DNA of 64,000 nucleotides from an uncultured Candidatus Saccharimonas sp. (GCA_943354005.1 CALRBE010000001.1:64147-128146), one strand, 5' to 3'; positions 5,673 through 62,733 are shown, numbered from the stretch's first letter. Numbers and translations: made by a program. Notes: generated by a model from the sequence alone, not told the origin.

Positions 5673-6349
5673 CCCTTGTACGCCGCTCCCGCCCGATCGC
5701 TAACAATACTTCCTGCTTCCATAGTAATGACTCGTCGCTTTAATTTATTTACAATTTCCTGGTTGTGGGTTGTGAGTATCACGGTTGTTCCAAATTTATT
5801 TATCTTTTCAAGAACCCTAATAACATCCCAAGCATGCTTTGGATCAAGATTTCCTGTTGGCTCATCAGCAATTAGTATGCGAGGTTGACGGACAATCGCC
5901 CTAGCAATTGCAACTCGTTGACGTTCACCACCAGAAAGTTCTTCAGGCATTCTTTTTTCTTTACCTTTTAATCCGACAATATCAAGCACACGTGGTACTG
6001 TGTTTTCTATTTCTTTATTGCCCATTCCAACTATTTCGAGAGCAAATGCCACGTTTTCAAATACAGTCTTATTTGGTAACAATTTAAAATCCTGGAAGAC
6101 TACACCTATTTTACGGCGCAGTAATGGTATTTCTTTATCTTTCAAAGTTTCGTAATCAATGCCGCCAACGATTATTTTTCCAGATGTAGGCTTTTCTTCT
6201 CGAGTAAGTAGCTTCAGTAGTGTTGACTTACCTGCTCCACTAGGACCTATGATAATAACGAATTCCTTGGGTTCAACATGTAGACTGATACGCTCTAGGG
6301 CTTGGCCGTTTTTATTATAAGTTTTTGTTACTCGATCTAATAGAATCAT
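5669..6349 (-). CDS. ftsE: cell division ATP-binding protein FtsE
   Basis: 226 aa. Walker A GPSGAGKST, ABC signature LSGGERQR, Walker B ILIADEPT. Immediately upstream of ftsX. Confidence 0.92.
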   Translation of the reverse strand: MILLDRVTKTYNKNGQALERISLHVEPKEFVIIIGPSGAGKSTLLKLLTREEKPTSGKIIVGGIDYETLKDKEIPLLRRKIGVVFQDFKLLPNKTVFENVAFALEIVGMGNKEIENTVPRVLDIVGLKGKEKRMPEELSGGERQRVAIARAIVRQPRILIADEPTGNLDPKHAWDVIRVLEKINKFGTTVILTTHNQEIVNKLKRRVITMEAGSIVSDRAGAAYKG

Positions 6350-6399
6350 ATGCTACACAGTATAGCAAAATGCTCACGCTTATTCACGTAAATAACTTA

Positions 6400-8808: not shown

Positions 8809-11409
8809 CTATTTCCTTTTACCTTTTTTACGTCGTTGTCGCTCTGCCTTATGTGCTTTTTTACGTGACTTTTCAGTAACTTTCTTTTTTGTACCACCTT
8901 TTTTAGCGCCGGAACCCGAAAAGTCTTCTTCAGCAAATTCATCAGCTTCTATGATCCTATCCGCATTATCGACTGAAGATCGGGCTGCTAACGTTAGGTC
9001 AGTCTCAACAGGTTTTGCGCTGATTTCAGTAGGCTCAGCTGCAAATAATGATCTTATTACGTCATGACGTAATTCAGCCTGCATCGCCTCAAACATATAC
9101 TGTCCTTGACGTCGATACTCAACAAGAGGATCTCGCTGACCAACACTAATCCAATGAATTCCCTGGCGCAAGTGATCCATGTTTTCAAGGTGCTGCATCC
9201 AAAGATTATCAAGCAGCTGTAAGTAGATATCCCTTTCAACTTTACGCATTAGATCGCTGCCAAAAGCAGCTTCATGTTCTGCATATAAATTCATAACAGC
9301 AGTCTCAAGTGCTTTAGGGAATTTTTCTGCCGGTGAATCAAATAGTTTATCTAGGACTTTTTCACTAAACGGGAAGACTTCACGTAAAGATGCTTCGTAG
9401 AGATCAGTCGTAGAGAGTGGAGATTCTGCTAGTAACTTCGCTTCTTCTTCCAGATATAGCTTAATTCTCTTACTAATGTCAGGCTGCATAAGAATTTCAC
9501 GTCGCATTATGTACGTTGCTTTTCGGTGTCTGTTCATGACATCATCGTATTCAACGACATTCTTACGCTGATCAAAGTTATGACCTTCAACCTTCTTTTG
9601 TGCAGTTTCAAGACTCTTAGAAATTATTTTGTTTTCGATTGGTGTCTCGTCATCGACTTTCAATCTGTTCATAACGCTAGCGATGCGCTCTCCACCGAAA
9701 ATACGCATTAGATCATCTTCGGTGCTGACGAAGAACTGTGTGACACCAGGGTCACCCTGCCGCCCTGACCGTCCACGTAACTGGTTATCGATACGTCTTG
9801 ATTCATGTCTCTCAGAACCTAGAACGAAAAGTCCACCAAGTTCATGAACCTCTTCAGATAGTACAATGTCCGTACCACGACCGGCGATATTTGTGGCTAG
9901 CGTAACACTGCCTCGCTCACCTGCTTTAGCGACGATAGCTGCTTCTTTTTCATTATTCTTAGCATTCAGTAGTTGATACGGTACTTTTTGCTTTGAAAGT
10001 AGACGAGCAAGCTCTTCATTCTTCTCAATCGAAACTGTACCGATAAGCACAGGCTGTCCTTTTTCGTGTAGCATCTTTACTTCTCGAGCAATAGCCTTAA
10101 ACTTCCCTGCTTCCGTCTTATAGATTCTGTCTGCTCGGTCAATACGGGCTAAGCCTCGATTAGATGGAATATCTAATACATCAAGTTTGTAGATCTGGTG
10201 GAATTCTTCACTTTCTGTCTGAGCAGTACCGGTCATACCCGCAAGCTTTTCATAAAGTCGGAAATAGTTCTGGAAGCTAATCGTTGCAAGAGTCATAGAT
10301 TCTTCCTGAACTTCAACGCCTTCTTTTGCTTCAATTGCCTGGTGCAGACCTTCGTTATATCGCCGGCCCTTTAGTAATCGTCCAGTAAACTCATCGACAA
10401 TAACGACTTCACCTTCTGATGTAACAACATAATCCTTATCGCGCTTGAATAGTGCCTGAGCTTTTAGAGCTTGGTCGAGGTGATAAATGGTTCGAATGTT
10501 ATCACTTGCGTAAAGGTTATCGATTCCGAGCGCTTTTTCAATAAACTCAACGCCTTCATCGGTAAGCACAGAAGCCTTCTGCTTTTCATCAATTTCATAA
10601 TGCTTTTCTACCTTAAGCTGCCGTGCAACTTTAGAAAATTGTGAATATGCATTACCACTTGTCATTGCGGGAGCAGAAATAATAAGAGGGGTTCGTGCCT
10701 CATCGACAAGAATTGAGTCAACTTCGTCTACGATTGCAAAATGCAGATCACGTTGTCGAAGCTGTTCAACTTCACGAACCATGTTATCCCTCAAATAATC
10801 AAAGCCAAATTCATTATTAGTCCCATAAGTAACGTCTGCCGCGTAAGCCTGTTGTCTTGTACAAGGCTTAAGGTGAACTAATCGCTTATCATTATGCTTC
10901 TTATTCTCGAAAGCTTCATCGTAAATATAAGATTCATCAGCAATAATTACTCCAGTAGTCAGTCCTAGGTAGGCATATACTTGACCCATCCATCCTGCAT
11001 CGCGTTGAGCAAGGTAATCATTGACGGTAACGACGTGCACACCTTTACCGCTTAGGGCGTTTAGGTATACAGGAGCTGTTGCAACAAGTGTTTTTCCTTC
11101 ACCAGTCTTCATTTCGGCTACGTTGCTTTCGTGGAGCGCCATGCCTCCAATAAGCTGGACGTCAAAGTGACGCTGGCCAAGACTTCGTGATGCTGCTTCG
11201 CGAACTACTGCGAAGGCATCAGGCAGTATTTTATCAATTGATTCTTTATTAAGTCGCTCTTTTAAGATCTTCGTCTGCTCTTTAAGCTTAGATTCAGAAA
11301 GTTTTTCATATTTAGGTGCTAATGCATTAATTTCGGCTACTTTTTTTTGTAGTCGCTTAACTTTTTTTGCTTGAGGGTCGCCCAAGACTTTTTTGAAAAC
11401 TTTATTCAT
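8809..11409 (-). CDS. secA: preprotein translocase ATPase SecA
   Basis: 866 aa. Motor motifs (MKTGEGKT, DEVDSILVDEARTPLII, LATNIAGRGTDI). Lys/Arg-rich C-terminal tail without a Cys-rich zinc motif. Confidence 0.97.
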   Translation of the reverse strand: MNKVFKKVLGDPQAKKVKRLQKKVAEINALAPKYEKLSESKLKEQTKILKERLNKESIDKILPDAFAVVREAASRSLGQRHFDVQLIGGMALHESNVAEMKTGEGKTLVATAPVYLNALSGKGVHVVTVNDYLAQRDAGWMGQVYAYLGLTTGVIIADESYIYDEAFENKKHNDKRLVHLKPCTRQQAYAADVTYGTNNEFGFDYLRDNMVREVEQLRQRDLHFAIVDEVDSILVDEARTPLIISAPAMTSGNAYSQFSKVARQLKVEKHYEIDEKQKASVLTDEGVEFIEKALGIDNLYASDNIRTIYHLDQALKAQALFKRDKDYVVTSEGEVVIVDEFTGRLLKGRRYNEGLHQAIEAKEGVEVQEESMTLATISFQNYFRLYEKLAGMTGTAQTESEEFHQIYKLDVLDIPSNRGLARIDRADRIYKTEAGKFKAIAREVKMLHEKGQPVLIGTVSIEKNEELARLLSKQKVPYQLLNAKNNEKEAAIVAKAGERGSVTLATNIAGRGTDIVLSEEVHELGGLFVLGSERHESRRIDNQLRGRSGRQGDPGVTQFFVSTEDDLMRIFGGERIASVMNRLKVDDETPIENKIISKSLETAQKKVEGHNFDQRKNVVEYDDVMNRHRKATYIMRREILMQPDISKRIKLYLEEEAKLLAESPLSTTDLYEASLREVFPFSEKVLDKLFDSPAEKFPKALETAVMNLYAEHEAAFGSDLMRKVERDIYLQLLDNLWMQHLENMDHLRQGIHWISVGQRDPLVEYRRQGQYMFEAMQAELRHDVIRSLFAAEPTEISAKPVETDLTLAARSSVDNADRIIEADEFAEEDFSGSGAKKGGTKKKVTEKSRKKAHKAERQRRKKGKRK

Positions 11410-11514
11410 GAAATAACACTCCTCTGGAACTTGTCAGTAGTTGATATGGTATAGATTCTATTGTATCGCATTTATATGATACAGAGGAACGTAATTTTTA
11501 CTCTATTCACTTTA

Positions 11515-11886
11515 CTAGCTAGCCTGCGCAGGATCCCGTTTGAACTTATTCATAATTCTTTGGTGCAGGCGCTTAGTTCCGTGTGTTTCTTTATACTTAA
11601 TAATCTGGTTTTTTAATTTAGCTTCGACAACGTCAACTGCCGCAAACATATTAATTGTCGTCTCTTTAACGGTGATCGTATCATGTGGTAAATGTAATAT
11701 AACTTCAGCAGTACATTCAACACGAGTTTTAATTTTTTGTTCTTTTAGTTTGACATCAGCATGTGCTGATTCTCGTGCGTGCAATGGCATGTACTGGTCC
11801 ATTTTACCAATCTTCTTTAATACGTATTTCTTTAGGTCATCTGAAACTTCTGTGTGTATACCGCTAATCTCAATTTTTTGGATCAT
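11515..11886 (-). CDS. hpf: ribosome hibernation promoting factor (short HPF/RaiA family)
   Basis: 123 aa with a typical S30AE-family N-terminus (IEISGIHTEVSDDLKKYVLKKI). Sits upstream of secA, as in Bacilli. Confidence 0.85.
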   Translation of the reverse strand: MIQKIEISGIHTEVSDDLKKYVLKKIGKMDQYMPLHARESAHADVKLKEQKIKTRVECTAEVILHLPHDTITVKETTINMFAAVDVVEAKLKNQIIKYKETHGTKRLHQRIMNKFKRDPAQAS

Positions 11887-13178
11887 ATTTTTTCTTTTCC
11901 TCCCATAAATGGTTTTAATACTTCCGGAATCATCACGTCACCTTCTGGTGTCTGATAATTCTCAATAATCGCGATTAATGGACGCTGCGAAAAGACTGTC
12001 GCATCGTTCGTATGTAACAGTTCAACCTCGCCAGTTTCACGTCTTAATCGAGTCTTCATAGCTCGAGCTTGGTAATCTGTAATGTAATCTGCAGTATGAG
12101 TTTCTCGATATGTATTTTGAGATGGTAGCCAAGCTTCTATATCAACTCCTTTTGCATTAGGCCTACCAATATCAGCAGTACACTTCTCTAGTACGTGATA
12201 TGGCAACTTCAGTTGCTGCATGAGATACTCTTGCACTGCAACCAAAAATAAGTGCTCGTTAAGTGAGGTTTCGGGTGTCGTGAAACTTTCAATCTCAAGC
12301 TTATTGAATTGATGTAATCTAAAAATCCCTTCGGTGTCTTTTCCATATGTACCAGCTTCTTTTCGAAAAGCCGTGGTATAACCAATGTAACGAATTGGAA
12401 GCTCTTTTTCATCCAAGATTTCATTCATGTACATCGGAGCTATCGTGTGCTCTGCACTTGCATTCATCCATAGATCTTCATCTTCGAACTTGTATGTTTG
12501 TTCTTCTCTATTCAGTCTTCCTGTTGCCTCAAATACTTCTTTTTTAGCAACTGCTGGAGGTAACACAGGAATAAAAGGCTTGCTGCTCACTTGCAGGTCA
12601 TTCTCTGCGATGATTTGCTTCAATATTTCCTCATCTCCAAGTACGGCCATTCCGTATTGCCAGAGAGCAAACTCAAGACGAACTAAGTCTCCTTTTGTAT
12701 ATACAAAGCGGGCACCGGCAATTTTTACCGCTCGTTCTTTATCGAGCCAGCCTTTCGTCATCGCAATATCCGCATGATTCTTGGGCGTAAAATAGAACTC
12801 AGGCTTTTCGCCAACAGTTTTAATAACCTGGTTATCTGCTTCCGTCGTGCCAACAGGTACTGAATCAAGAGGCATATTTGGGACAGCTTTTAGAAGCGCT
12901 TGATATTCATGTTCCAATGGATCGAGTCTAGCTTCAATCTCAGTCAATTCATTTTTAATAGCTTTCCCGCGTTCAAGCTGCTCCATTGTAGGCTTACCGG
13001 CCTTTAAAGATGCGGCATGCTCGTTGCGGTCAGCTCGCAGGCTTTCGATCTGTGCAATCATTTTTTTGCGTTCAGTATCAATTTTTAATAACTGCCCCAC
13101 ATTGATTTCATATCCCTTTTGTGCGGCCTTTTCAGCTACAGTCTCAGGGTTGTCTCGAATTATCTGTATATCAATCAT
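11883..13178 (-). CDS. serS: seryl-tRNA synthetase
   Basis: 431 aa. N-terminal coiled-coil arm and class II motif 2 (TTAFRKEAGTYGKDTEGIFRLHQFNKLE). Confidence 0.95.
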   Translation of the reverse strand: MIDIQIIRDNPETVAEKAAQKGYEINVGQLLKIDTERKKMIAQIESLRADRNEHAASLKAGKPTMEQLERGKAIKNELTEIEARLDPLEHEYQALLKAVPNMPLDSVPVGTTEADNQVIKTVGEKPEFYFTPKNHADIAMTKGWLDKERAVKIAGARFVYTKGDLVRLEFALWQYGMAVLGDEEILKQIIAENDLQVSSKPFIPVLPPAVAKKEVFEATGRLNREEQTYKFEDEDLWMNASAEHTIAPMYMNEILDEKELPIRYIGYTTAFRKEAGTYGKDTEGIFRLHQFNKLEIESFTTPETSLNEHLFLVAVQEYLMQQLKLPYHVLEKCTADIGRPNAKGVDIEAWLPSQNTYRETHTADYITDYQARAMKTRLRRETGEVELLHTNDATVFSQRPLIAIIENYQTPEGDVMIPEVLKPFMGGKEKI

Positions 13179-13236
13179 ACCTACAGTATACGTTGCCTTA
13201 TGGTGTTATGCTAGGGAAAAGCTATGTAGAAATGGC

Positions 13237-14016
13237 CTACGAGCGCTTCTGCTTTAGCGCATCGAGTGTCAACATCGTTCTTTGTCTGGCGTATGAACAA
13301 AAATCACATTCCCCACCCATAGCTGCTGTACCTACTGCAGGCATATCGCCGTCCATGCATAATTTCATTTTCTTTAATGTTGGCTCAATCCAGGCGTCAT
13401 CTCCAACATATGGGATAATTTTAGTCTTAAACTCAACCTTATTAAAGAAACCGTCGAGATCCATTCGACCATTCGTATAAACGAAGTAGCCGGTGTCACT
13501 CACCTCGTAACCATTCTGTCTTAGTAGCCATTGGTAGACTTCTAACTGTCTTTTGTAGCTTATCTGCCAAGCCGCATCAATGCTTACTTCCCTATCCTTA
13601 GCTGTCGCCTTGTAGTCAACGACGATCATTTTACCGTCCTCGTCCATCCATAGATCGTCTATTGCACCGAATACATGCAAGTTTGTAGGCTTATGTATAA
13701 CCACAATACCAGTAAAGTTATGGCGCCATGTTTCAAGCTCATCATGCTTCATGGGCACAGCTTTAACCTTGTACTCCGTCATAAGTGGATGCGGCTCTGC
13801 TTTTATTCGGTAACTATCAAACTCTTTTTTAAAGAGTTCATCGATTGCTTTATTAATATTAAATGGCGGACTATTCGGCCGAGTAATCTTTAGGCGCACA
13901 TCTAGCCAGAAGCAACGCGGGCATTGCATAAATAGCTCTATCTTGCTTCTACTGACCTTAAATGGGCTTACTTGGCCAGGTTGATACGGCTGACTCCGCT
14001 CTCTCCAATAATTCAT
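13237..14016 (-). CDS. PD-(D/E)XK nuclease, Cas4/RecB-like with four-Cys cluster
   Basis: 259 aa. N-terminal SxSxxxxFxxCPRC, catalytic GAIDDL ... VVDYKAT (D...DxK), QLEVYQWLL (QxxxY), and C-terminal C...CDFC. Confidence 0.65.
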   Translation of the reverse strand: MNYWRERSQPYQPGQVSPFKVSRSKIELFMQCPRCFWLDVRLKITRPNSPPFNINKAIDELFKKEFDSYRIKAEPHPLMTEYKVKAVPMKHDELETWRHNFTGIVVIHKPTNLHVFGAIDDLWMDEDGKMIVVDYKATAKDREVSIDAAWQISYKRQLEVYQWLLRQNGYEVSDTGYFVYTNGRMDLDGFFNKVEFKTKIIPYVGDDAWIEPTLKKMKLCMDGDMPAVGTAAMGGECDFCSYARQRTMLTLDALKQKRS

Positions 14017-14020
14017 TGGC

Positions 14021-14704
14021 TTATTGTAACAGCCTTACGACAGAAGTAACTGCTGCAGTTTCAGCTCTAAGCGTAAAATCATGAATATTGAGATGGGCTA
14101 CAGAAAGATTATTGAAAAGCTCCTTTTCAGAATCAGACCAGCCACCCTCAGGGCCAATGAGCACACCTTGCGGTCCTTCACTAAGCTTAGCTCCTTCACT
14201 ATCCTGCTCACAAATAAACAGCTGGATCTTATCTTTATACTGTTCAATGGCCGCCTTAACGGGTAGCGGTTCACGAACGTTAGGGATATCGCTTCGTCCG
14301 CACTGTTCTGCTGCTTCGATAATAATCTTTTCTGCCCGCTGATGATTAAAGCCTGTCTTTTCAGACCGGTCTGCAATTAGAGGAATAAAATGGCTAACTC
14401 CAAGTTCACTACATTTCTGAAGTACCCAATCATTTTTATCTTTTTTGAGCAATGACCAGAAAAGGTAAAGATCTTTTTTGGGTAACTGTCTTTTGTAGTC
14501 AGTAATATGTTTAAGATGGGCTTCTTTCGGACTTATTTCTATAATTTCGTATAAACGGTCATGCTCTACTCCATCAAACAAAACTACCTGCTGACCGGGA
14601 CGAAAGCGTAGCACTTTGTTCCATTGATGCAGCTGCTCCGGCTGCTGAATCCAACAATCCTGCTCTAGCTTGATGTCTGGTGTATAAAATCGATGTATCT
14701 TCAT
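14021..14704 (-). CDS. rsmE: 16S rRNA (uracil1498-N3)-methyltransferase RsmE family
   Basis: 227 aa. HRFY N-terminus, PUA-like N-domain, and SPOUT C-domain motif LIGPEGGWSDSE. Confidence 0.85.
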   Translation of the reverse strand: MKIHRFYTPDIKLEQDCWIQQPEQLHQWNKVLRFRPGQQVVLFDGVEHDRLYEIIEISPKEAHLKHITDYKRQLPKKDLYLFWSLLKKDKNDWVLQKCSELGVSHFIPLIADRSEKTGFNHQRAEKIIIEAAEQCGRSDIPNVREPLPVKAAIEQYKDKIQLFICEQDSEGAKLSEGPQGVLIGPEGGWSDSEKELFNNLSVAHLNIHDFTLRAETAAVTSVVRLLQ

Positions 14705-15945
14705 TGTCTCTCTAGTATAACTAATGTTTCAATATGTGGTGTTTTTGGAAAAAAATTATACCCTGCAAAGCTTGAGATTTTATAACTATCTTTTAGTAAT
14801 GCAACATCCCGTGCTTGTGTCGCAGGATTACATGACAAATAACAAACAAGTGGAGGCTTAACGGACAGGATTCTTTCAATAACATCCCTATGTAGGCCAC
14901 TACGCGGTGGGTCAACAATAAGTGCTACATCTGATTCAATATACTGCAGTGCTTTCTCGGTGCTTGCGTGCACGACATCAATGTCTTGATTCCGTGCATT
15001 ATGATTAGCCATATCAATATTCGCTTTATCGAGTTCAACAAGTGTTTTTGTATTGCCGATTGCTAAACCAATTGTTCCTACGCCAGAGTACATATCCACT
15101 TTTTTAGTTTCATTTTTTGTAGCGTCGGCTATTTCTTTGAGGGCCATTTCAAAAACCGGTAAATTTACCTGGAAAAATCCACAAACGTCATATGTAATTG
15201 GTGTATTGTTTAGCTCGTCAGTAAGTGTAGTTGTCCCCTCTTGGTAGAGAAGTTTTGTAAGGACAGAAGCAGGACTCTTAGGGTTTGAATGATATACTTT
15301 GAGGCCTTTTATTACCTTAGGCTTCTTAAGCTCTACAAAAGTTTCAGGTTTTACGAATAAGGCGGCAACCACATCCCCGTTTTGGTCACATCTAAATATG
15401 ACTGATTTTAAATCGCCTGCACGAATCGTGTGGGTATTTAACTCTTTTAAAAATTCTTTAGCTGCTGAGTTTATCTGAGGGAGCGCTAATGCACTTTCTG
15501 TGACTATCTGTTTCTGGTGTGATCCGCGGTTAAAGAATGCATAATGAAGCCCGGTGTCATCTCCATAGAATGAGAACTCTATTTTATTTCGATAACCAAA
15601 TGGCACATTGTCTGAAAGCATTGAGAAATCTGGTAATTCCACGTGCTCTCTAGAAAATGTCTCGCTAACGATTAGTGCCTTTTGAATATTTTCATATTCT
15701 AAGTCCATGATTTGCCATGGTGATGTTGCAAGATAAATATCTTCTTTGGGCTCTATACGATGAGCTGAAGGACTTATTATTTCCTCTGCGATACCTTCGA
15801 CGAAGTCCTTCCTTGTTCTTGTGAGGCGCGCTCTTACGACCTCTCCAGGTAGAGCATTCCAGATGAATGCCTTTCGACCGTCTCCAATAACCCCCATACC
15901 TTGCCCGCCATGTACGAGCTTATGTATTGTCAGTTCTTCGGACAT
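14701..15945 (-). CDS. 23S rRNA (uracil-5)-methyltransferase, RlmD/RumA family
   Basis: 414 aa. N-terminal TRAM-like domain; FFQVN, DPPRSG and catalytic-Cys motif LSCNPATQARD. ATGA overlap with rsmE. Confidence 0.85.
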   Translation of the reverse strand: MSEELTIHKLVHGGQGMGVIGDGRKAFIWNALPGEVVRARLTRTRKDFVEGIAEEIISPSAHRIEPKEDIYLATSPWQIMDLEYENIQKALIVSETFSREHVELPDFSMLSDNVPFGYRNKIEFSFYGDDTGLHYAFFNRGSHQKQIVTESALALPQINSAAKEFLKELNTHTIRAGDLKSVIFRCDQNGDVVAALFVKPETFVELKKPKVIKGLKVYHSNPKSPASVLTKLLYQEGTTTLTDELNNTPITYDVCGFFQVNLPVFEMALKEIADATKNETKKVDMYSGVGTIGLAIGNTKTLVELDKANIDMANHNARNQDIDVVHASTEKALQYIESDVALIVDPPRSGLHRDVIERILSVKPPLVCYLSCNPATQARDVALLKDSYKISSFAGYNFFPKTPHIETLVILERQ

Positions 15946-15952
15946 AGATTAA

Positions 15953-16756
15953 TTAAGGACGAAGAGTTCCAGAGAATACTTGCCATGCAAGAAGTGATTT
16001 AGCAACAAGGCTTAAAATCATGTATGTGCGTTCTCCGTAAAGATAGTTAGACCATTTGCCAATTTTCTTATACTGAAGATACATGTTGATTGCAAAGGTG
16101 TTGAACAGTATGAATAGGCTTGCAAATATGAAGTAAACGAATGTTGGAATATCACCTGAACCATAAACGTTAGATCCAGTGACATAAATTGCAAAGATGA
16201 TCCAAGGAACTATTCCTGCAAGACATCCAACTTTGTAAGTAAACCATTTAACTTTCTTCTCACCCTGGTTCTGTAGCTCCATTGCTAGTCCCATAAGGTT
16301 CATAATAAGATCAAGGGCAAAGATCGCTACAATCGTAGATAGATCAGAGATTCCGCTCAATAGGCCGATTGCGACCATCATGATGCTGGCACTTATGCCA
16401 TATTCAATCCAGCGCGCCTTATTGATTCCTTTTTTAAGATCAGATTCATACGTTTTACGATAAACTGTTGCGATGATTGTATGTGCAATAGCTGATACGA
16501 TAAAGAAAGACGCAACTACGTAACCAAGATTAACGCTAAATATTGTACGTGTACCCATTGCCAGGATTGGTTTACCAGCTATTTCAGTTGCCAGTGTGTC
16601 CTGAGATAAAAACGTTGTGGTTATAGGCCATGTAACAGCCTTACTTAGCGCAATAACAGCTATAGCTTGTACTGCATGCAGCACGGCCATTGACTTGTTC
16701 CATTTAATTAATGATTGGATGGTGATTGGTTTGTTGGTTGATTTTTTAGATTTCAT
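15953..16756 (-). CDS. heliorhodopsin
   Basis: 267 aa from the ATG at 16756; the track ORF extends to 16852. Seven TM segments. By my recollection of heliorhodopsin 48C12 it is near-identical in blocks: VLHAVQAIAVIAL, ARWIEYGISASIMMVAI, GCLAGIVPWI, YLQYKKIGKWSNYLYGERTYMILSLVAKSLLAWQVFSGTL. The Schiff-base Lys of SLVAKS is encoded at 15998-16000. The counter-ion Glu (RWIEY) and both His residues are conserved. Confidence 0.9.
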   Translation of the reverse strand: MKSKKSTNKPITIQSLIKWNKSMAVLHAVQAIAVIALSKAVTWPITTTFLSQDTLATEIAGKPILAMGTRTIFSVNLGYVVASFFIVSAIAHTIIATVYRKTYESDLKKGINKARWIEYGISASIMMVAIGLLSGISDLSTIVAIFALDLIMNLMGLAMELQNQGEKKVKWFTYKVGCLAGIVPWIIFAIYVTGSNVYGSGDIPTFVYFIFASLFILFNTFAINMYLQYKKIGKWSNYLYGERTYMILSLVAKSLLAWQVFSGTLRP

Positions 16757-16762
16757 ACTAAA

Positions 16763-16798
16763 ACTATACCACATCCTGAACGCCGCTAATGGTATACT
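16763..16798. promoter_or_regulatory. divergent promoter pair (heliorhodopsin / sortase)
   Basis: Minus strand: TGgTATAGT (-10 at 16763-16768), then 6 nt, then the ATG at 16756. Plus strand: TGgTATACT (-10 at 16793-16798), then 10 nt, then the ATG at 16809. Both are extended -10 type with no Shine-Dalgarno sequence. Confidence 0.55.
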
Positions 16799-16808
16799 GA
16801 TGTAGAAT

Positions 16809-17537
16809 ATGACAAGAAAAAAAACAAAATCAGCTTCTATTATCCTTGGCAATAAAGGAAAGCTACTTACTAATACACCTCAAAAGAAAGCCCCTAATAC
16901 ACCCCGTTCTATCTGGCGGGCTTTTAAAAAAAGAAGTAAAAAATCAAAAATAATCATTGTTGGAGCTATTGTAATAGCAATAGCCAGCTTTATTTTATTA
17001 ATCCTACCGTACCTACCCCGCCTTAGCTACCTTATTCGAAAACCAAAAATAGATGCAAAGCCCTATAGTCAAGCTGCCGCAGATGCAAAACAAGGTTCTA
17101 CGAAAATTAGTGATGATGCAATCCAAAAGCTTAAAGGTAATAGACTAATTCTTCCATCAATTGGTGTAAACGCAGAGATCATAGATGGACGAGAAGTATA
17201 TGTAATTGGCAAAAACCAAGGTGTCTGGAGAGAGACTAAGAATATAGATCCTACAAAGGACGGCAATATCGTTCTTGCCGGACATCGCTTCTTATATACT
17301 GCTAATAGCGGAGGCTACTTTTATAATCTTCCCGAGCTTAAGCTAGGTAGCAAGATATATGTCCGATGGAAAGATACTGTCTACGAGTATGAGGTATACA
17401 ATACCAAGACTGTTCTTCCGACTCAGGTAGACATTAGAGATAAAGATCCAAAAGTTTCAAAGAAGTTAACAATGTATACATGCTACCCCTTAGGAAGCAC
17501 ATCGAAACGATACGTTGTTGAAGCAAAACAGTTATAA
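16809..17537 (+). CDS. sortase family transpeptidase
   Basis: 242 aa. N-terminal basic region plus TM. Catalytic His (VLAGHR), Cys (LTMYTCYP, TLxTC-like) and Arg (SKRYVVEA). Confidence 0.85.
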   Translation: MTRKKTKSASIILGNKGKLLTNTPQKKAPNTPRSIWRAFKKRSKKSKIIIVGAIVIAIASFILLILPYLPRLSYLIRKPKIDAKPYSQAAADAKQGSTKISDDAIQKLKGNRLILPSIGVNAEIIDGREVYVIGKNQGVWRETKNIDPTKDGNIVLAGHRFLYTANSGGYFYNLPELKLGSKIYVRWKDTVYEYEVYNTKTVLPTQVDIRDKDPKVSKKLTMYTCYPLGSTSKRYVVEAKQL

Positions 17538-18074
17538 CTAAGAGCGAATACGTGAAGCAAATTTTTTACGAAGCTTTTTGAGCTTTGGATTAATTATTAC
17601 TTGGCAGTAGGCAGATTCAGGATGCTGCGCAAAGAAATCCTGATGTTCTTGCTCAGCCATATAAAACGTCTGTAATGGAAGAATCTCAGTTACAATTGGA
17701 TCGTCCCAGACGGCTGAATTATCATTCATCGATTTTTCAGCTATGTTTTTTTGCTCTTCATTACTGTAAAGAATTATAGAACGATACTGTGTACCGACAT
17801 CGTTGCCCTGCTTGTTTAGTGTAGTAGGGTCATGTAGGGCCCAGAAAATATCAAGTAAATCTTTTAGCTTTATTTTGTCGGTATCAAAAGTTATTCTGAC
17901 AACCTCAGCATGCCCGGTTTCACCAGTACAAACTTGGTCATATGACGGGTCTTTGACATTACCTCCAGAATAACCTGTTTCTACGCTCAAAACGCCTTCA
18001 ATAAGGCGGTAGCCCGCATCAAGACACCAGGAGCATCCACCGCCGAGCACAATCGATTCCTTGTGTGCTGCCAT
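17538..18074 (-). CDS. msrA: peptide-methionine (S)-S-oxide reductase
   Basis: 178 aa. Active-site motif GGGCSWC and conserved HDPTTLNKQGNDVGTQYRS. Confidence 0.93.
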   Translation of the reverse strand: MAAHKESIVLGGGCSWCLDAGYRLIEGVLSVETGYSGGNVKDPSYDQVCTGETGHAEVVRITFDTDKIKLKDLLDIFWALHDPTTLNKQGNDVGTQYRSIILYSNEEQKNIAEKSMNDNSAVWDDPIVTEILPLQTFYMAEQEHQDFFAQHPESAYCQVIINPKLKKLRKKFASRIRS

Positions 18075-18078
18075 GGAT

Positions 18079-18381
18079 CTATTCCTCTACGCTTACATCT
18101 CGCCAAAAAGCAACGTAATTTGAAAAATCTTTTTTGACTCGCTCTATTGCTGAAGGTTTTGGACTTGGGTAGCTAAAGGCATTATCCTGACTTAAATGTT
18201 CCTTTTGCCCTACGTTAAAGTACTGACATTCGCCCTTCCATGGACAAGTATATGGAGTCGGGCTTTTATGTAAGTATTCTTTCTTAACAGACGAAGGTGG
18301 AAAATACCAGTTTCCTTCAATATATATAAGATCTTCCTTCTTTGCTTCAGCTATTACTATATTGTTCCAAATTGCTTTCAT
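18079..18381 (-). CDS. DUF427 domain protein
   Basis: 100 aa. Pattern IVIAEAKKEDLIYIEGNWYFPPSSV ... TCPWKGECQYFNV is typical of DUF427. Confidence 0.7.
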   Translation of the reverse strand: MKAIWNNIVIAEAKKEDLIYIEGNWYFPPSSVKKEYLHKSPTPYTCPWKGECQYFNVGQKEHLSQDNAFSYPSPKPSAIERVKKDFSNYVAFWRDVSVEE

Positions 18382-18406
18382 AAAACCCCTTTTTTATTAA
18401 TCTTAA

Positions 18407-19765
18407 TTATTCGGTTCGAAGTGCCTCTATAGGATCAAGCTTAGCAGCTTTACGTGCTGGTAATAGCCCTGCAAAAATAGCGACGAGAACGAGCAATACA
18501 ATGAGTATTGCTATCTGATTAGCCTTAAATATAAGGAGCTTCTGTGTGCCAAAATCTAATTTATTAGTAATCCATGGGTTTAATAATGTTCCCAATACGA
18601 CTGCAAGTCCTGAGCCAATAGCTCCTCCTAGAAAGCCAATCCAAGCTGCCTCGAAGCGGAATAATCGACTAACGTCCTTGCGACGCATTCCAAGCGCTTT
18701 CATGAGCCCTATCTCACGCGTCCGTTGAATGACACTGATGTACATAGTATTTACTACTCCAAAAACTGATGCAATTATCGCGATAAGACCAAAGGCTACA
18801 ACAATTGTCTTTAAGACATTAATAATTTGCGTCAGGAATTGCTGTGTCTCTTCAACGCTCTGAGAAACAAAACCATCTTTACTTAGTTGTTCCTGAACTT
18901 TTAGTAGATTGGCCTTATCCTCACCATCCTTTACCTTAACGTTAACTCTAGTATATTGCCGATACTGCGATGTTCCAGCCGTAGCGATATCATTCAGGTT
19001 TTTAGCAGCTTGCGTACTTATCTGCAACGATAGCTCTGTTCCAGGTTGAGCAGGCTCAGACTTCAAAACAGCAACTACCTTAAAAGGAACTAGTACTGTA
19101 CTCTTATCTCCAATCACCTCTGCATCTTGTAGGTTACGAGGAGCGGTACCTGTCTCAACGATCTGTGAACTCAAAGATTTCCTAATTGCTATGGTAAGTT
19201 CCTTGCCTATTGCACTTTGTGGGTCTTTGAAGCCAAGAGCTGATACGTAAGCTTCTGGCAGGAGCAATGAAGTGTTGTTAATTGGCTTAGGTATTGAACC
19301 TGCTAGTATCTCAGGATTGCGAGCAGGACTATAGTCCTGTATATTGGCTATGTACTTTTTTTGACCCGGGCGAGTAACGTACTGAACGTTAAGAATAACT
19401 CCTTCACGAACCTGTTCAACTAACGGGTACTTAAGAATCTTGTTTACATCCTGTTCTGTGACTTGCTTAACTTGAATTGGTGCACCGCTAGCAGAAGATA
19501 TAGACCCGAAAGAAGCATCATACTCTTGTGGCTTATTATTATCTCCACGACCAAATATAGTTTCGTCTTTAGCAACTAATAGCTCTGTAGGGTCAAAGTT
19601 ATTGCTAATGAGGCGATTTACATAGGATTGTGCACCGTTACTTGCAGCTAGTGTCATCGTAAGAGCAAAGGCCCCAACACCAATTGCCATTGCTGTTAAT
19701 AATGTTCGAGCTTTTGCTTGTTTTAAATTACGGGCGCTTCTTTGTGAGACATCAAAAATTTTCAT
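18407..19765 (-). CDS. ABC transporter permease, MacB/FtsX-like
   Basis: 452 aa. One TM, a ~270 aa extracytoplasmic domain, three C-terminal TMs, and the terminal motif PARKAAKLDPIEALR. Confidence 0.85.
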   Translation of the reverse strand: MKIFDVSQRSARNLKQAKARTLLTAMAIGVGAFALTMTLAASNGAQSYVNRLISNNFDPTELLVAKDETIFGRGDNNKPQEYDASFGSISSASGAPIQVKQVTEQDVNKILKYPLVEQVREGVILNVQYVTRPGQKKYIANIQDYSPARNPEILAGSIPKPINNTSLLLPEAYVSALGFKDPQSAIGKELTIAIRKSLSSQIVETGTAPRNLQDAEVIGDKSTVLVPFKVVAVLKSEPAQPGTELSLQISTQAAKNLNDIATAGTSQYRQYTRVNVKVKDGEDKANLLKVQEQLSKDGFVSQSVEETQQFLTQIINVLKTIVVAFGLIAIIASVFGVVNTMYISVIQRTREIGLMKALGMRRKDVSRLFRFEAAWIGFLGGAIGSGLAVVLGTLLNPWITNKLDFGTQKLLIFKANQIAILIVLLVLVAIFAGLLPARKAAKLDPIEALRTE

Positions 19766-19767
19766 TG

Positions 19768-20454
19768 CTATTTACTTACCTTTTTATTTTCGGCAAAGTG
19801 CACAACTTTTCCATCTTTTAATGTAATTCGGTATTGGCAGCGATCAGCAAGCTCATTATCATGAGTTACTACAATTAAAGTGTTCTTATTTAGTCTATTG
19901 AGCTTAAAAAGTAATTTTATGATCATTTCTCCAGTAGAGCTGTCTAGATTACCGGTTGGCTCATCCGCAAAAATTAGTTTTGGTTTGTTTACAATAGCCC
20001 GTGCGATTGCTAATCTCTGCTTCTGGCCACCAGAAAGGTTTCCTGCTTTAGCATCGATCTTATCTTTAAGTCCAACTTGTCCGAGAGCATCCTCTATCCT
20101 TATCTTTCGTTGACCTTCCTCGGCTATCTCAAGGGGTAATGATACGTTCTGATAGCAAGTCTGATTAGCCTCTACGAAGAAAGCTTGAAAAATGAAGCTC
20201 ATTTCAGTTGACCTAAATTTATCCATTTTACGACCTTTAAGCTTATGCAGCTCCTGATCGCCAATCATCACTGCGCCTGAGTCAGGATGGTCAAGACCAC
20301 TCATGATATGCATGAGTGTTGATTTTCCTGAACCGCTCTTCCCTACTATAGCTACAGTTGAGCCTTCAGGAATGCTAAAACTTACGTTACTTAGCGCCTT
20401 AAAAAGGCTATCTTTTTTACCATATGTTTTTACAATGTTTTTTACTGAAATCAT
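19768..20454 (-). CDS. ABC transporter ATP-binding protein (MacB/LolD-like)
   Basis: 228 aa. Walker A GKSGSGKST, signature LSGGQKQR, Walker B LIFADEPT. Confidence 0.9.
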   Translation of the reverse strand: MISVKNIVKTYGKKDSLFKALSNVSFSIPEGSTVAIVGKSGSGKSTLMHIMSGLDHPDSGAVMIGDQELHKLKGRKMDKFRSTEMSFIFQAFFVEANQTCYQNVSLPLEIAEEGQRKIRIEDALGQVGLKDKIDAKAGNLSGGQKQRLAIARAIVNKPKLIFADEPTGNLDSSTGEMIIKLLFKLNRLNKNTLIVVTHDNELADRCQYRITLKDGKVVHFAENKKVSK

Positions 20455-20492
20455 TAGTATAAGTATACCACTGGGGTAAATGAATCTATAAA

Positions 20493-22013
20493 CTATTTAG
20501 ATAGTTTAAGGTCTGGGTAGATAGTTTTAGTAACTTCATCGACTTCGCTACGTAGCTGAGGAAAAGGAACACCTTCTCTTGCAGATACATTTTCAAAAAT
20601 CCAAAATACACGCTCGCTAAAGCCCCAGCCACAAGCTGGTGGCATGCCATATTCGAGCATTTCAACATAATCAATATCGAGCATCATAGCTTCGTCGTCT
20701 CCAGCGTCACGCATGTTCTGTTGTTCTGTGAATCGATTAAGCTGATCAATAGGATCATTTAGCTCTGTAAATCCATTTCCAAGCTCACTACCCGCGATAA
20801 CTGGCTGGAATCTCTGTACTGTATCTGGATTTTCAGGGTTTATTTTAGCAAGTGGGCTAATGAATAGTGGTGTATTAATAAGCCAAACTGGTCCGGCTAC
20901 ATCTTTACGAATATTTTTCCATAGTTTATCGATTCCACGAGCCTTGTTTTCAGTCTGAGCTACTTCTAACTTATGGTCCTTTAGCGCACTCTTCACTTCA
21001 TCTAGTGTGCAGTTGAATACGTCAATACCGTATTTGTTTTTAATAACTTCAGCATAGTCCCATTGCTCCCAATCCTTAGATAGATCAACATCAAATTCAC
21101 CAATCTTAAATTTAAGAGTTCCGAAAGTCTTTTCAATTACGTGACGATACATATCCGTCATAAACGCGATCCCGTCCTGCCAGTCAGCGTATGCCCAATA
21201 CCACTCCATGGCTATGTGCTCAGGTAGATGCTCGTCAGTATAGTTTTCGTTCCTAAAGCGCGGACCAATGTCGTATACCTTATTGTAACCACCGCCAACT
21301 AATCGCTTAAGAGGCAGCTCATGACTGATTCGTAAGTAGAAGTCTTGATCAATAGCATCCATATGGGTCACGAAAGGATTAGCGTCAGCTCCTCCTGTTG
21401 TATGTTCTAGAACAGGAACATTAATTTCTATAAAATCATTTTTATTCAGAAAGTCTCTTGTAGCTTGCCAGAATTTAGATCGACGGATGAATCGATTATA
21501 GACGTCTTGATTAACGTTGGTATCTATATAACGTCGACGTAATCGTTCTTCTTTATTAGAAAACCCGTCTTGTGCAGTTGGCATTGGACGTAGGCTTTTT
21601 GAGAGTAACCGTAGTGAGTTCACAGTAATCGACTGTTCACCAGTTTTAGTTGTTGCAGCTATACCAGTAACCTCAATGAAGTCACCTGAATCTAGAAGGT
21701 TAATATTCTCAAACTTAAGCTCACTATTTAAGTAATCTACTTCCTGCATACTTGCTTCGTTAAGGAAAACTTGCATTGTAGCGTGCGCATCTTTGATAAC
21801 AATAAAGGCAATCTTTCCAAATTTTCGGATCGCAGTTATTCTACCGGCCGTTGTTACATTACTTCCCTTTTTTTCAAGTTCAGGATAGTTTGCAAGAACC
21901 TGAGATACTGCATGAGTTATTTGAGATTTAGCAGGGTATGGATTTATCCCGAGATTTTTTAAATCATCGAGTTTACGTAGTCTTTCGTTTCGTAGTTCTT
22001 TGAGTGTAGCCAT
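20493..22013 (-). CDS. lysS: lysyl-tRNA synthetase, class II
   Basis: 506 aa from MATLKELRNERLRKL at 22013; the track ORF starts 10 codons earlier. OB-fold anticodon-binding domain and class II core (GPRFRNENYTDEHLPE, GSELGNGFTELNDP). Confidence 0.95.
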   Translation of the reverse strand: MATLKELRNERLRKLDDLKNLGINPYPAKSQITHAVSQVLANYPELEKKGSNVTTAGRITAIRKFGKIAFIVIKDAHATMQVFLNEASMQEVDYLNSELKFENINLLDSGDFIEVTGIAATTKTGEQSITVNSLRLLSKSLRPMPTAQDGFSNKEERLRRRYIDTNVNQDVYNRFIRRSKFWQATRDFLNKNDFIEINVPVLEHTTGGADANPFVTHMDAIDQDFYLRISHELPLKRLVGGGYNKVYDIGPRFRNENYTDEHLPEHIAMEWYWAYADWQDGIAFMTDMYRHVIEKTFGTLKFKIGEFDVDLSKDWEQWDYAEVIKNKYGIDVFNCTLDEVKSALKDHKLEVAQTENKARGIDKLWKNIRKDVAGPVWLINTPLFISPLAKINPENPDTVQRFQPVIAGSELGNGFTELNDPIDQLNRFTEQQNMRDAGDDEAMMLDIDYVEMLEYGMPPACGWGFSERVFWIFENVSAREGVPFPQLRSEVDEVTKTIYPDLKLSK

Positions 22014-22078
22014 TAGATCACAGTATAACTTCTTTCGTGGCATCAGCCAAGAACAAGCTGTAGACTTAGCTCTGTTAT
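21984..22078. repeat. 95-bp direct repeat, copy 1 (lysS promoter, start and first 10 codons)
   Basis: Identical to 23006-23100 except one base (g at 22037 versus a at 23059). Contains TTGGCT-17-TATACT on the minus strand (22045-22050 and 22022-22027) and the lysS ATG at 22013. Confidence 0.9.
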
Positions 22079-22190
22079 CTTATAATGCGTTGTTTCTGCA
22101 GGTAAAATAATTTGTACAAATTCAGTAACCGAATCGGCAAAATCTTTTTCCAGTTCGTTTAAGCCATATTTGCTGAGTCAGTTTTTGGCA
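22075..22190 (-). pseudogene. decayed greA remnant with internal deletion
   Basis: An exact 17-mer, gcgttgtttctgcaggt, is shared with the greA 3' end. The segment ttcagtaaccgaatcggcaaaatctttttccagttcgtt closely matches the greA 5' region near 23487-23527. About 330 bp of greA is missing and there is no intact ORF. Confidence 0.6.
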
Positions 22191-22216: not shown

Positions 22217-23035
22217 TCAGCTATTATTTACTATACCCAGTAAATCTTCGTGAATAACACCGTTAGAAATTATTACGCCTCCAGTTAGCTCCTCATTAAA
22301 ACGATGATCTAAACCTTTCGCATTCGTTAGTCTACCGCCAGCTTCCTCGACAATGAGTTTAACAGCCGCCATATCCCAAGGTTGGATTGTTTCTGGCCAG
22401 ATTGTACCATCAGATAGTCCTTGTGCGATAAGAACACCCTTGAAAACGCCGCCATGAATAATGTTTGTTTGGTAGGCTTCTTTCGCAAGTCGTTCATACA
22501 TAGCTTGTCTTGAGTAAAGCCACTTTAGACCTGTCGGGAATGCTAGCCAAGCCTCGCTCATTTTACGTGAGCTTACGTGTATTGGCTTACCGTCAAAATA
22601 TGCACCGCCATCTTTTGTCGCCCAGAAAATACCGCCATTGGCTAAGTCGCCAGCAACCGCCACTACGGGCTTGCCGTTTTCAACCAAAGCAAGTGAAAAC
22701 ATAAAAGTAGGCTCGCCCATAGAAAATGCAATCGTGCCGTCAATTGGGTCGCAAACCCATAAGTATTCTTTATCTGTTTGCCAAGATTTCTCTTCGCCCA
22801 AAACACCGTGCTCAGGAAAATGCTCTTTAACCTTATTAATAACCAGCTGATTAATTTTTTCATCAGCGATAGTAACGGGCGATGTGTCGCTCTTCGTCAC
22901 AAACTTTAAGTCAGTTTTGTAGTATTGCGAGCTTATTTTTCGGGCATCCTCGGCAACCATCTTGGCAAATTGCAGGGCGTCGTCGTATTTATTAATCTTT
23001 TGCCCTTCGTTTCGTAGTTCTTTGAGTGTAGCCAT
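22217..23035 (-). CDS. inositol monophosphatase family protein (SuhB/HisN-like) with a lysS-derived N-terminus
   Basis: 272 aa. Metal-binding GEE (VLGEEKS) and WVCDPIDGT motifs. The first 10 codons, MATLKELRNE, are nucleotide-identical to the lysS start. Confidence 0.85.
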   Translation of the reverse strand: MATLKELRNEGQKINKYDDALQFAKMVAEDARKISSQYYKTDLKFVTKSDTSPVTIADEKINQLVINKVKEHFPEHGVLGEEKSWQTDKEYLWVCDPIDGTIAFSMGEPTFMFSLALVENGKPVVAVAGDLANGGIFWATKDGGAYFDGKPIHVSSRKMSEAWLAFPTGLKWLYSRQAMYERLAKEAYQTNIIHGGVFKGVLIAQGLSDGTIWPETIQPWDMAAVKLIVEEAGGRLTNAKGLDHRFNEELTGGVIISNGVIHEDLLGIVNNS

Positions 23036-23100
23036 TAGATCACAGTATAACTTCTTTCATGGCATCAGCCAAGAACAAGCTGTAGACTTAGCTCTGTTAT
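23006..23100. repeat. 95-bp direct repeat, copy 2
   Basis: See copy 1; the offset is 1022 bp. It spans the greA stop codon (23097-23099), a promoter-like TTGGCT-17-TATACT, and the IMPase-family start at 23035. Confidence 0.9.
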
Positions 23101-23558
23101 GCTATATCAGTTATCTTGTAGTGCGTTGTTTCTGCAGGTGTGACAATTTCTACGTGTTCACCAACTTTTTTTCCGAGAAGCGCCATACCAATTGGAGATT
23201 CATCTGATATCTTGCCATTCATTGGATCTGCTTCAACAGTTCCAACAACTTGAAATGCTTTTACGCTACCCTTTTCGCTCTTCATTTTAACTGAAGATCC
23301 GATTTGAACTTTACTATCGCCCTTAGGCTTCTTAATGACTTCAACGTTTTGTAAGATATTTTCTATCTCAGATATGCGAGTCTCAGTACGTTCTTGTTCT
23401 TGACGTGCAGAACTATACTCAGCGTTCTCTGAAAGATCACCAAATTCACGTGCAGTTTTAATGCGCTCAGCTATTGGGCCACGTTCAGCAACCAAATCGG
23501 CAAACTCTTTTTCCAGTTCGTTGATGCCTTCTTGTGTTAATAAGTATTGTTTTTTCAT
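23097..23558 (-). CDS. greA: transcription elongation factor GreA
   Basis: 153 aa. N-terminal coiled coil with acidic tip (GDLSENAEY) and a C-terminal globular domain. Confidence 0.93.
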   Translation of the reverse strand: MKKQYLLTQEGINELEKEFADLVAERGPIAERIKTAREFGDLSENAEYSSARQEQERTETRISEIENILQNVEVIKKPKGDSKVQIGSSVKMKSEKGSVKAFQVVGTVEADPMNGKISDESPIGMALLGKKVGEHVEIVTPAETTHYKITDIA

Positions 23559-48129: not shown

Positions 48130-48244
48130 ATAAATCTAGTGTACCACGCTCTTAAATTATCAGACACTGAGTCTGTAAAACCTATTAATAATTACTGCTA
48201 GACCAATCCTAGATGAGGTCGACACAGAATACGTTAATACTTAT

Positions 48245-59732: not shown

Positions 59733-59803
<71 letters not shown>

Positions 59804-59817
59804 AAGGTGCTCCCCCT

Positions 59818-59852
<35 letters not shown>

Positions 59853-62702: not shown

Positions 62703-62733
<31 letters not shown>

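Follow-up and report, generated by a model that had tools for sequence, protein, structure and literature searches.

A canonical heliorhodopsin of a Saccharibacteria genome in a probably inherited gene neighbourhood

Introduction

Heliorhodopsins (HeRs) are on record for the Saccharimonadia: Chiriac et al. 2022 (PMC9166423) reported 80 of them with the SLVAK motif. Rhodopsin-bearing Saccharibacteria are without blh, and their type-1 rhodopsins are loaded with external retinal within seconds, as is TaHeR, the HeR of the Thermoplasmatales archaeon SG8-52-1, an organism that also has no retinal pathway (PMC9296517). Neither the occurrence of HeRs in Saccharimonadia nor the lack of retinal synthesis is new to the literature (PMC9166423, PMC9296517). 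Here, we analysed 64,000 nucleotides (nt) of DNA from an uncultured Candidatus Saccharimonas sp. (GCA_943354005.1 CALRBE010000001.1:64147-128146; hereafter the window), in which an original prediction had placed an HeR gene at the head of an operon with RNA methyltransferase and nuclease genes. The gene represents one more intact HeR in a presumably retinal-auxotrophic Saccharibacteria genome, a kind already documented.

The HeR of the window resembles those found by Chiriac et al. in Saccharimonadia/candidate phyla radiation (CPR) metagenome-assembled genomes (MAGs), with which it shares the organism class and the SLVAK retinal motif; the genomic slot, the promoter and the Lys-less orthologues presented below are not described in their work (PMC9166423). 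Its nearest solved relative is TaHeR (PDB 6is6, 7u55), which covers residues 7-267. The Lys, the Ser, the Glu and both His align between the two proteins, and the sequences of transmembrane helix 7 (TM7) and the C-terminus are near-identical, whereas TaHeR is archaeal and the HeR of the window has six additional residues in the TM1-TM2 loop and five in the TM5-TM6 loop. The founding HeR, 48C12 (PDB 6su3), is nearly identical in RW(V/I)EY, GC(I/L)AGIVPWI and the TM7 helix, but comes from an actinobacterial source and is less close than TaHeR.

As for the gene context, the described operons of HeRs and their partners (glutamine synthetase, photolyase, the ABC exporter OmrDE; PMC11109279) share with the window a co-directional and likely co-transcribed enzyme gene at a gap of less than 10 nt. 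Unlike in those operons, the enzyme in the window, which is RlmD-like, lies outside the ten recurrent partner groups, and its adjacency to the HeR is unconserved even within the class. RNA methyltransferases and PD-(D/E)XK nucleases appear in neither published survey of HeR neighbourhoods (PMC8612252, PMC11109279). The reading that we favour, with a probability of about 0.8, is that the window encodes a canonical HeR with a leaderless promoter of its own, that the RlmD-like gene is co-transcribed with it, and that the neighbours represent an inherited gene order, not a light-response module.

Identity of the heliorhodopsin

Judged by profile searches and alignments, the open reading frame (ORF) for the HeR (Table 1) is a full-length, canonical and intact heliorhodopsin of a Saccharibacteria (Saccharimonadia) genome. 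The Pfam model Heliorhodopsin (PF18761) matched it over profile positions 1-242 of 242 (E = 3.9e-91; 305.1 bits versus a cut-off of 26.7), the NCBIfam equivalog model NF038020 for HeR gave 307.8 bits (cut-off, 100), and the solved structures of TaHeR (6is6, E = 1.4e-68) and 48C12 (6su3, E = 2.4e-52) were aligned with it end to end. The original prediction, which had called the gene a clear heliorhodopsin, is supported by these matches. A longer ORF started with TTG reaches position 16852; the alignments of homologues begin at residue 1 of the 267-amino-acid form.

All residues named in the original prediction, i.e., the Schiff-base Lys, the Ser four residues before it, the Glu counter-ion and both conserved His, were recovered in residue-by-residue alignment. 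Lys253 aligns with K241 of 48C12, and likewise with the corresponding Lys of TaHeR. The SxxxK motif in TM7 reads S249-L-V-A-K253, in which Ser249 aligns with S237 of 48C12 and the Ser of TaHeR. Glu118, the single counter-ion in TM3, aligns with E107 of 48C12, His27 with H23, and His92 with the second conserved His (H80 in 48C12). Three sequence blocks had also been described as matching 48C12, and they do so closely in the alignment, though the nearest solved relative is TaHeR.

Database clusters matching the HeR at E <= 1e-10 numbered 6360, and the His, His, Glu, Ser and Lys were kept without exception in all 120 closest relatives. NCBI labels relatives of 58-73% identity as 'heliorhodopsin HeR [Candidatus Saccharibacteria bacterium]'. 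The exact 267-amino-acid sequence was absent from the protein collection searched, where the closest cluster, bearing no name, was 98% identical, and an exact-sequence look-up of the RlmD-like protein returned, as its sole match, a 10.9-kilobase (kb) Logan contig that begins within the HeR gene.

Seven hydrophobic segments were detected in a hydropathy scan, and Lys plus Arg residues in the loops amounted to 20 on the N-terminal side versus 3 on the opposite side. Because of this bias, an inverted topology with a cytoplasmic N-terminus is predicted, as expected for the family and in accordance with the N-inside orientation anticipated earlier. By analogy with TaHeR and 48C12, the protein would bind all-trans-retinal covalently on Lys253, with Glu118 as the counter-ion, and would undergo a slow photocycle with no ion pumping; the same analogy suggests a light sensor or regulator that signals via its cytoplasmic loops.

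Host genome and retinal supply

The best 80 related loci, taken from species-representative genomes, all belong to Saccharibacteria/Saccharimonadales MAGs, and 251 relatives were confirmed in total; the genome is of the reduced type assumed earlier. Housekeeping genes follow one another along the window, with few exceptions on the minus strand, and include those for CTP synthase, FtsEX, release factors, SecA, five aminoacyl-tRNA synthetases, class II ribonucleotide reductase, FtsZ/FtsA and IF2.

No member of the Blh, Crt or polyprenyl (trans-prenyl) synthase families was found in a Pfam scan of all 60-odd ORFs of the window, as the original prediction had stated for genes of retinal biosynthesis, and the sole prenyl enzyme is UppS. 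The possibility of a retinal or carotenoid enzyme hidden among unannotated membrane ORFs was considered and rejected: one such ORF has no Pfam match and another encodes a CAAX protease (Table 1). The former, of 248 amino acids with multiple hydrophobic segments, is neither a rhodopsin nor Blh by profile search, and an extended -10 element of its own is found 11 nt upstream of the start. As the organism would make no retinal, the chromophore would be imported, having been scavenged from a host or the environment; such scavenging has been argued for the type-1 rhodopsins of Saccharibacteria, and uptake has been shown for TaHeR.

Gene order around the heliorhodopsin

We compared 160 related loci of Saccharimonadia, of which 80 were anchored on the HeR (the best 80 of the 251 relatives) and 80 were metagenome loci anchored on the nuclease, the latter being chosen to avoid HeR anchoring. 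In the HeR-anchored set, the 18 proteins flanking the HeR in the window were located and all ORFs of the loci were clustered; in the nuclease-anchored set, 39 loci were informative, each having 3 kb or more of upstream sequence. About 65 of the 80 HeR-anchored loci share the order ProRS-GreA-LysRS-(ABC-MacB)-DUF427-MsrA-(sortase)-HeR-(HAD)-(RlmD)-(RsmE)-PDDEXK-SerRS-HPF-SecA-M16-PrfB, and the comparison of neighbourhoods across relatives that the original prediction had called for thus revealed an order conserved class-wide. About 15 HeRs of this set are found in unrelated contexts.

On this comparison, the HeR is a facultative occupant of a class-wide housekeeping array, MsrA-[HeR]-[HAD]-RlmD-[RsmE]-PDDEXK-SerRS-HPF-SecA. 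An HeR homologue occupied the same slot in 26 of the 39 informative nuclease-anchored loci, and in the 13 loci without it, the array is otherwise retained. In the HeR-less locus L153, for instance, MsrA ends at 5540 and is followed by HAD at 5550-6149, RlmD from 6191 and PDDEXK from 7447; L131, L132, L155, L130 and L147 resemble it. We rejected the idea that a divergent HeR is hidden in the HeR-less loci, as a profile built from 114 HeR sequences found none and the HAD gene occupies the gaps. The presence of the methyltransferase genes did not depend on the HeR: RlmD was found in 13 of 26 loci with and 8 of 13 loci without it (p = 0.73), and RsmE in 5 of 26 and 1 of 13, respectively (p = 0.64).

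The gene directly 3' of the HeR varied among the 113 HeR-bearing loci. It was a HAD hydrolase in 50 (median gap, ~8 nt), RlmD in 21 (gap, 6-222 nt, tight only in the nearest relatives of the window), RsmE in 10 (1-36 nt), the PD-(D/E)XK nuclease in two (27 and 129 nt) and an ABC ATPase in two (62 and 85 nt); another gene or none recognised followed in 25, and the contig ended in three. In L012 and L015, the HeR and RlmD are 3.5 kb apart with other genes between them. The HAD-family hydrolase, the commonest of these neighbours, is a protein of ~206 amino acids (e.g., 10815-11444 in L026), and its gene stays at its position in loci without an HeR; no HAD gene was found in the window.

On the upstream side, MsrA and DUF427 (17538-18381) are the conserved genes. 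MsrA was located at position -1 or -2 of the HeR in 32 of 79 HeR-anchored loci, and in 23 of 26 HeR-bearing versus 9 of 13 HeR-less nuclease-anchored loci (p = 0.19). The sortase gene was present in 18 of the 80 HeR-anchored loci, all nearer relatives of the window, and the nuclease gene adjoins that for SerRS in 51 of the 80. In the simplest history, the HeR would be an old occupant of the slot, and a loss of the HAD gene in the lineage of the window would have brought RlmD next to it; the sortase gene would have been inserted upstream, in the opposite direction, in this lineage.

In L071 and L074, genes for a MacB-type ABC transporter are located directly 3' of the HeR, whereas those of the window are found 2 kb upstream of it (Table 1). 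The arrangement recalls the published pairing of an HeR with an ABC transporter (PMC11109279), though the transporter is of a different type.

Promoters and transcription units

The HeR would be transcribed from its own extended -10 promoter into a leaderless mRNA (Table 1). The pattern TRTGnTATAGT-N6-ATG was found upstream of the HeR in 16 of 18 close relatives and, altered at one base, in the other two; the remaining spacer is unconserved. Back to back with this element, in the 52-nt spacer, is the putative promoter of the sortase gene, which reads GTATAsCAyT on the HeR strand and is kept in most relatives with a divergent sortase.

Downstream of the HeR, a scan for terminators over 13000-18500 gave none that was convincing, and no terminator-like hairpin was found between the HeR and RlmD. 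In the window, no -10 element precedes the RlmD-like gene, and the one at RsmE (TATACT, 9 nt and ATG) is weak. The HeR-RlmD junction is 7 nt long and without a promoter or terminator motif, and co-transcription of the two genes is therefore likely. A transcript that begins with the HeR, runs on into the RlmD-like gene and probably extends to RsmE is very likely. For the nuclease and SerRS genes, in turn, starts from conserved leaderless promoters of their own are inferred. The co-transcription put forward in the original prediction can thus be retained for RlmD as likely and for RsmE as probable; the nuclease has a conserved putative promoter of its own.

These assignments are reflected in the frequencies with which starts carry the motif across the 160 loci. 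Of 130 PDDEXK starts, 72% carried the extended motif and 84% the motif when only its -10 part was counted, and it was present at 78% of 102 SerRS starts, 58% of LysRS starts, 44-48% of HeR starts, 40-61% of ABC ATPase starts and 38% of MsrA starts. The frequencies were 0-21% for RsmE, 2-16% for RlmD, 3-12% for HAD and 0-10% for GreA, HPF, SecA and M16, and 0.9-3.6% in random windows.

The pattern extends over the whole window. A -10 hexamer (TAyAnT, often TGn-extended) was detected 4-9 nt upstream of 16 of 60 gene starts versus 2.6% of ATG triplets, and five of the seven occurrences of the extended motif are at annotated starts (further elements are given in Table 1). This implies that leaderless transcripts would be widespread. 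Conserved gene by gene over the 160 loci, the -10 pattern yields a testable map of transcription units, which rests on this leaderless extended -10 promoter type.

Lys-less orthologues in the same slot

The Schiff-base Lys was missing in 16 of the 33 HeR homologues that occupy the same slot in the nuclease-anchored loci, being replaced with Q, R, T, A, M, V, I or S. In the majority of these proteins, the counter-ion Glu and the two His are missing as well. Nevertheless, the TM7 frame GER.Y..LS..A.…AWQ.F.G.L.P aligns cleanly in them, and the motifs RW and GKW..Y.YGER of predicted cytoplasmic loops stay conserved. Full-length Lys-less orthologues are encoded in L086, L090, L099, L100, L104, L115, L118, L126, L127, L128, L146 and L148. 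A search with the protein of L146 uncovered a clade of 33 clusters (P0137-P0169), 48-99% identical and uniformly without the Lys, Glu and His residues, some members of which are labelled 'heliorhodopsin HeR' by NCBI.

The ratio of nonsynonymous to synonymous substitution rates (dN/dS) was 0.085 for the Lys-less pair L127/L146 and 0.17 for L115/L099, compared with a median of 0.17 for Lys-bearing pairs; the ratios are rough, as dS is near saturation in these pairs. They indicate that the Lys-less orthologues would be under purifying selection. Nearest-neighbour identities and parsimony on a neighbour-joining tree gave at least 4-6 independent losses of the Lys (at least six changes by Fitch parsimony on that tree), which suggests that the residue may have been lost independently at least four to six times. 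The Lys-less lineages are known from contigs of uncertain habitat. In the searchable literature, we found no description of Lys-less heliorhodopsins; Lys-less forms are described for type-1 rhodopsins only (Rh-noK, FArhodopsins).

It is tempting to speculate that the core job of the slot protein is independent of retinal, the HeR of the window being the light-modulated form of a constitutive membrane regulator, though we hold this to be unlikely. Such a regulator would act via the conserved cytoplasmic loops on a partner, for which the HAD hydrolase or the co-transcribed RlmD-like enzyme would be candidates. The Lys-less orthologues leave the reading of the HeR in the window unchanged: this gene keeps all the residues. 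Natural Lys-less orthologues in a fixed slot offer an experimental handle on a light-independent role of HeRs. In L014, which comes from a Saccharibacteria MAG, two HeR genes stand in tandem, a canonical one with the Lys (10001-10804) and a divergent one (10864-11784) with Arg at the Lys site and Asp at the counter-ion site.

Functional meaning of the neighbourhood

Several points weigh against the interpretation of the neighbours as inherited gene order. The working paradigm of the field is that HeRs regulate the products of co-transcribed genes (PMC11109279), and this partner-in-operon view would point to RlmD. All loci compared come from one class, so that their shared order can neither prove nor disprove functional coupling. 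As the window covers only 64 kb, the view that retinal is not synthesised rests on the literature for related genomes. A generic sigma-70 scan of 13000-18500, in whose place the upstream regions of relatives were later aligned, called no promoter at the HeR, and the promoters proposed above derive from conserved motifs alone. Read-through from MsrA, antisense via the sortase gene, may also occur. If the paradigm held here, the HeR would be functionally coupled to the RNA methyltransferases and/or the nuclease, either by light-activated binding and modulation, for which glutamine synthetase, photolyase and ABC transporters in other HeR operons give a precedent (PMC11109279), or by a shared promoter that ties ribosome modification to light. 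The motif-free junction of 7 nt would fit this, as would the order HeR ... RlmD-RsmE, which recurs in many loci, and the rarity of promoter motifs at RlmD and RsmE class-wide, by which these genes usually ride on the promoter of the upstream gene, often that of the HeR. The comparative data nevertheless argue against a specific link. RlmD is directly 3' of the HeR in only 21 of the 113 loci and is separated from it by 3.5 kb of other genes in two; the array remains intact without the HeR, RlmD and RsmE showing no dependence on it; the ~15 HeRs of the same family in unrelated contexts have no RlmD, RsmE or nuclease; the nuclease has its own conserved putative promoter; and these enzymes are outside the published surveys cited above. 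We therefore regard such coupling as very unlikely, and the 'tight link' to RNA-modification and nuclease genes, seen in the original prediction as an unusual light-sensing context, is not supported, the neighbour being variable and the array persisting without the HeR.

A protective role against light and oxidative stress, exerted together with the conserved upstream MsrA, has a published basis in the proposal made for monoderm and CPR HeRs (PMC8612252, PMC9166423), and the frequency of MsrA at position -1 or -2 and in HeR-bearing nuclease-anchored loci agrees with it. MsrA, however, is also present in 9 of the 13 HeR-less loci, bears a promoter motif of its own at 38% of starts, and is separated from the HeR in the window by the sortase gene on the opposite strand; the synteny caveat raised for RlmD applies to it equally. 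The link is compatible with the data, but without support beyond synteny because MsrA is retained in HeR-less loci, and we see it as possible, if on the unlikely side. Another explanation is that the HeR mainly serves, independently of retinal, as a scaffold or regulator in the membrane that light would modulate at most. The Lys-less homologues of the slot, most of them without the Glu and His too, the clade uniformly without retinal residues, the low dN/dS values and the conserved cytoplasmic-loop motifs speak for it, whereas the HeR of the window and all of its 120 closest relatives keep the His, His, Glu, Ser and Lys, which implies strong selection on the retinal chemistry in this lineage, and dS near saturation makes the ratios rough; this explanation is quite unlikely. 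A recent horizontal insertion of the HeR into the housekeeping operon of this genome might be suspected from the facultative presence of the gene (26 of 39 loci) and from the MsrA-PDDEXK interval, which is a hot spot of lineage-specific genes. Still, HeRs of 25-89% identity are found in the same slot across deeply diverged Saccharimonadia, the promoter motif is conserved, and the local GC content of the HeR region (0.38-0.41) is no different from that of the whole window. With no compositional anomaly and the same slot used class-wide, we rejected this scenario as scarcely credible.

We thus retain the reading of a canonical HeR amid an inherited gene order, in which the RNA methyltransferase and nuclease neighbours should not be taken as a clue to HeR function. 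In compact CPR genomes, genes can be packed as closely as in an operon purely by inheritance of their order, and this calls for caution in inferring HeR partners from neighbouring genes.

Neighbouring genes

The gene order of the original prediction, with methyltransferases and a nuclease downstream, a divergent sortase gene and msrA converging nearby, was reproduced in our ORF map and Pfam matches (Table 1), as was the overlap of 4 nt between RlmD and RsmE. Three details had to be corrected: the gap between the stop codon of the HeR and the ATG of RlmD is 7 nt, not 8, that between RsmE and the nuclease is 4 nt, not 5, and the nuclease, described as having four Cys, has five, arranged as CxxC near the N-terminus, a single Cys, and CxxC near the C-terminus.

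The gene directly downstream of the HeR is that of a RumA-family m5U RNA methyltransferase, by its domains, and its product is RlmD-like but below the cut-offs of the RlmD equivalog models (TIGR00479, 150.8 bits versus 183.55; NF009639, 117.7 bits versus 458). The RsmE-family protein scored 138.2 bits versus a cut-off of 41 with the subfamily model TIGR00046, and every equivalog model was below its own cut-off. The nuclease reached 36.9 bits with the cas4 model TIGR00372, below the cut-off of 65, and matched PADLOC Cas4 at E = 4.7e-11; its cluster is labelled Cas4 by JGI and 'PD-(D/E)XK nuclease family protein' by NCBI. No CRISPR array was found in the window, and no cas family among its ORFs in the Pfam scan. 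A CRISPR or defence role was rejected on the Cas4 score under the cut-off, the lack of an array and the lack of any other PADLOC match, and the nuclease is, from these scores, Cas4-like in fold family only.

Table 1. Positions of the genes, codons, promoter elements and repeats of the window
Feature	Position	Strand	Remarks
-10 hexamer TATACT	13185-13190	(-)	6 nt upstream of SerRS ATG; putative start of SerRS-HPF-SecA unit
Stand-alone PD-(D/E)XK nuclease, Cas4-like	13237-14016	(-)	PF12705 (PDDEXK_1), E = 1.5e-13
Extended -10 TGTTACAAT	14023-14031	(-)	6 nt upstream of nuclease ATG, within RsmE 3' end; putative leaderless promoter
RsmE-family 16S rRNA m3U methyltransferase	14021-14704	(-)	PF04452 + PF20260 (PUA + SPOUT); overlaps RlmD
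RumA/RlmD-family RNA m5U methyltransferase	14701-15945	(-)	TRAM + tRNA_U5-meth_tr (Pfam)
HeR ORF	15953-16756	(-)	267 amino acids; ATG at 16756
HeR Lys253 codon	15998-16000	(-)	Schiff base
HeR Ser249 codon	16010-16012	(-)	
HeR Glu118 codon	16403-16405	(-)	Counter-ion
HeR His92 codon	16481-16483	(-)	
HeR His27 codon	16676-16678	(-)	
Extended -10 TGGTATAGT	16763-16771	(-)	6 nt upstream of HeR ATG; putative HeR promoter, leaderless mRNA
Extended -10 TGGTATACT	16790-16798	(+)	10 nt upstream of sortase ATG; putative divergent promoter
Sortase	16809-17537	(+)	PF04203, E = 1.5e-23; TIGR01076; divergent from HeR
MsrA	17538-18074	(-)	PF01625, E = 3e-60; convergent with sortase
DUF427 protein	18079-18381	(-)	PF04248, E = 2.2e-20
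MacB-type ABC transporter genes	18407-20454		
Further -10 element	20462-20470	(-)	
Further -10 element	6359-6367	(-)	
Further -10 element	48138-48146	(-)	
CAAX protease	25819-26643		
Membrane ORF	32998-33744	(-)	No Pfam match
Direct repeat, 101 nt	21984-22084 / 23006-23106		97% identical, 1022 nt apart
Additional repeat	22071-22129 / 23107-23165		
Inositol-monophosphatase-family gene	22217-23035		
23S rRNA gene	59452-63397	(-)	3946 nt
ORF within 23S rRNA gene	60478-61020	(-)	LAGLIDADG homing endonuclease, PF00961, E = 7e-29

Other features of the window

The 23S rRNA gene is 3946 nt long versus the 2925 positions of its model, and a LAGLIDADG homing endonuclease is encoded by an ORF within it. 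An intron that carries its own endonuclease, a situation on record for CPR rRNA genes, is the most likely explanation.

A direct repeat of 101 nt, accompanied by an additional repeated segment, brackets an inositol-monophosphatase-family gene that has no counterpart in 80 related loci, and the gene therefore appears to have been inserted with duplication of its target. The repeat holds the promoter-like element of LysRS together with its first ten codons (MATLKELRNE), and the true start of LysRS is probably the ATG at 22013.

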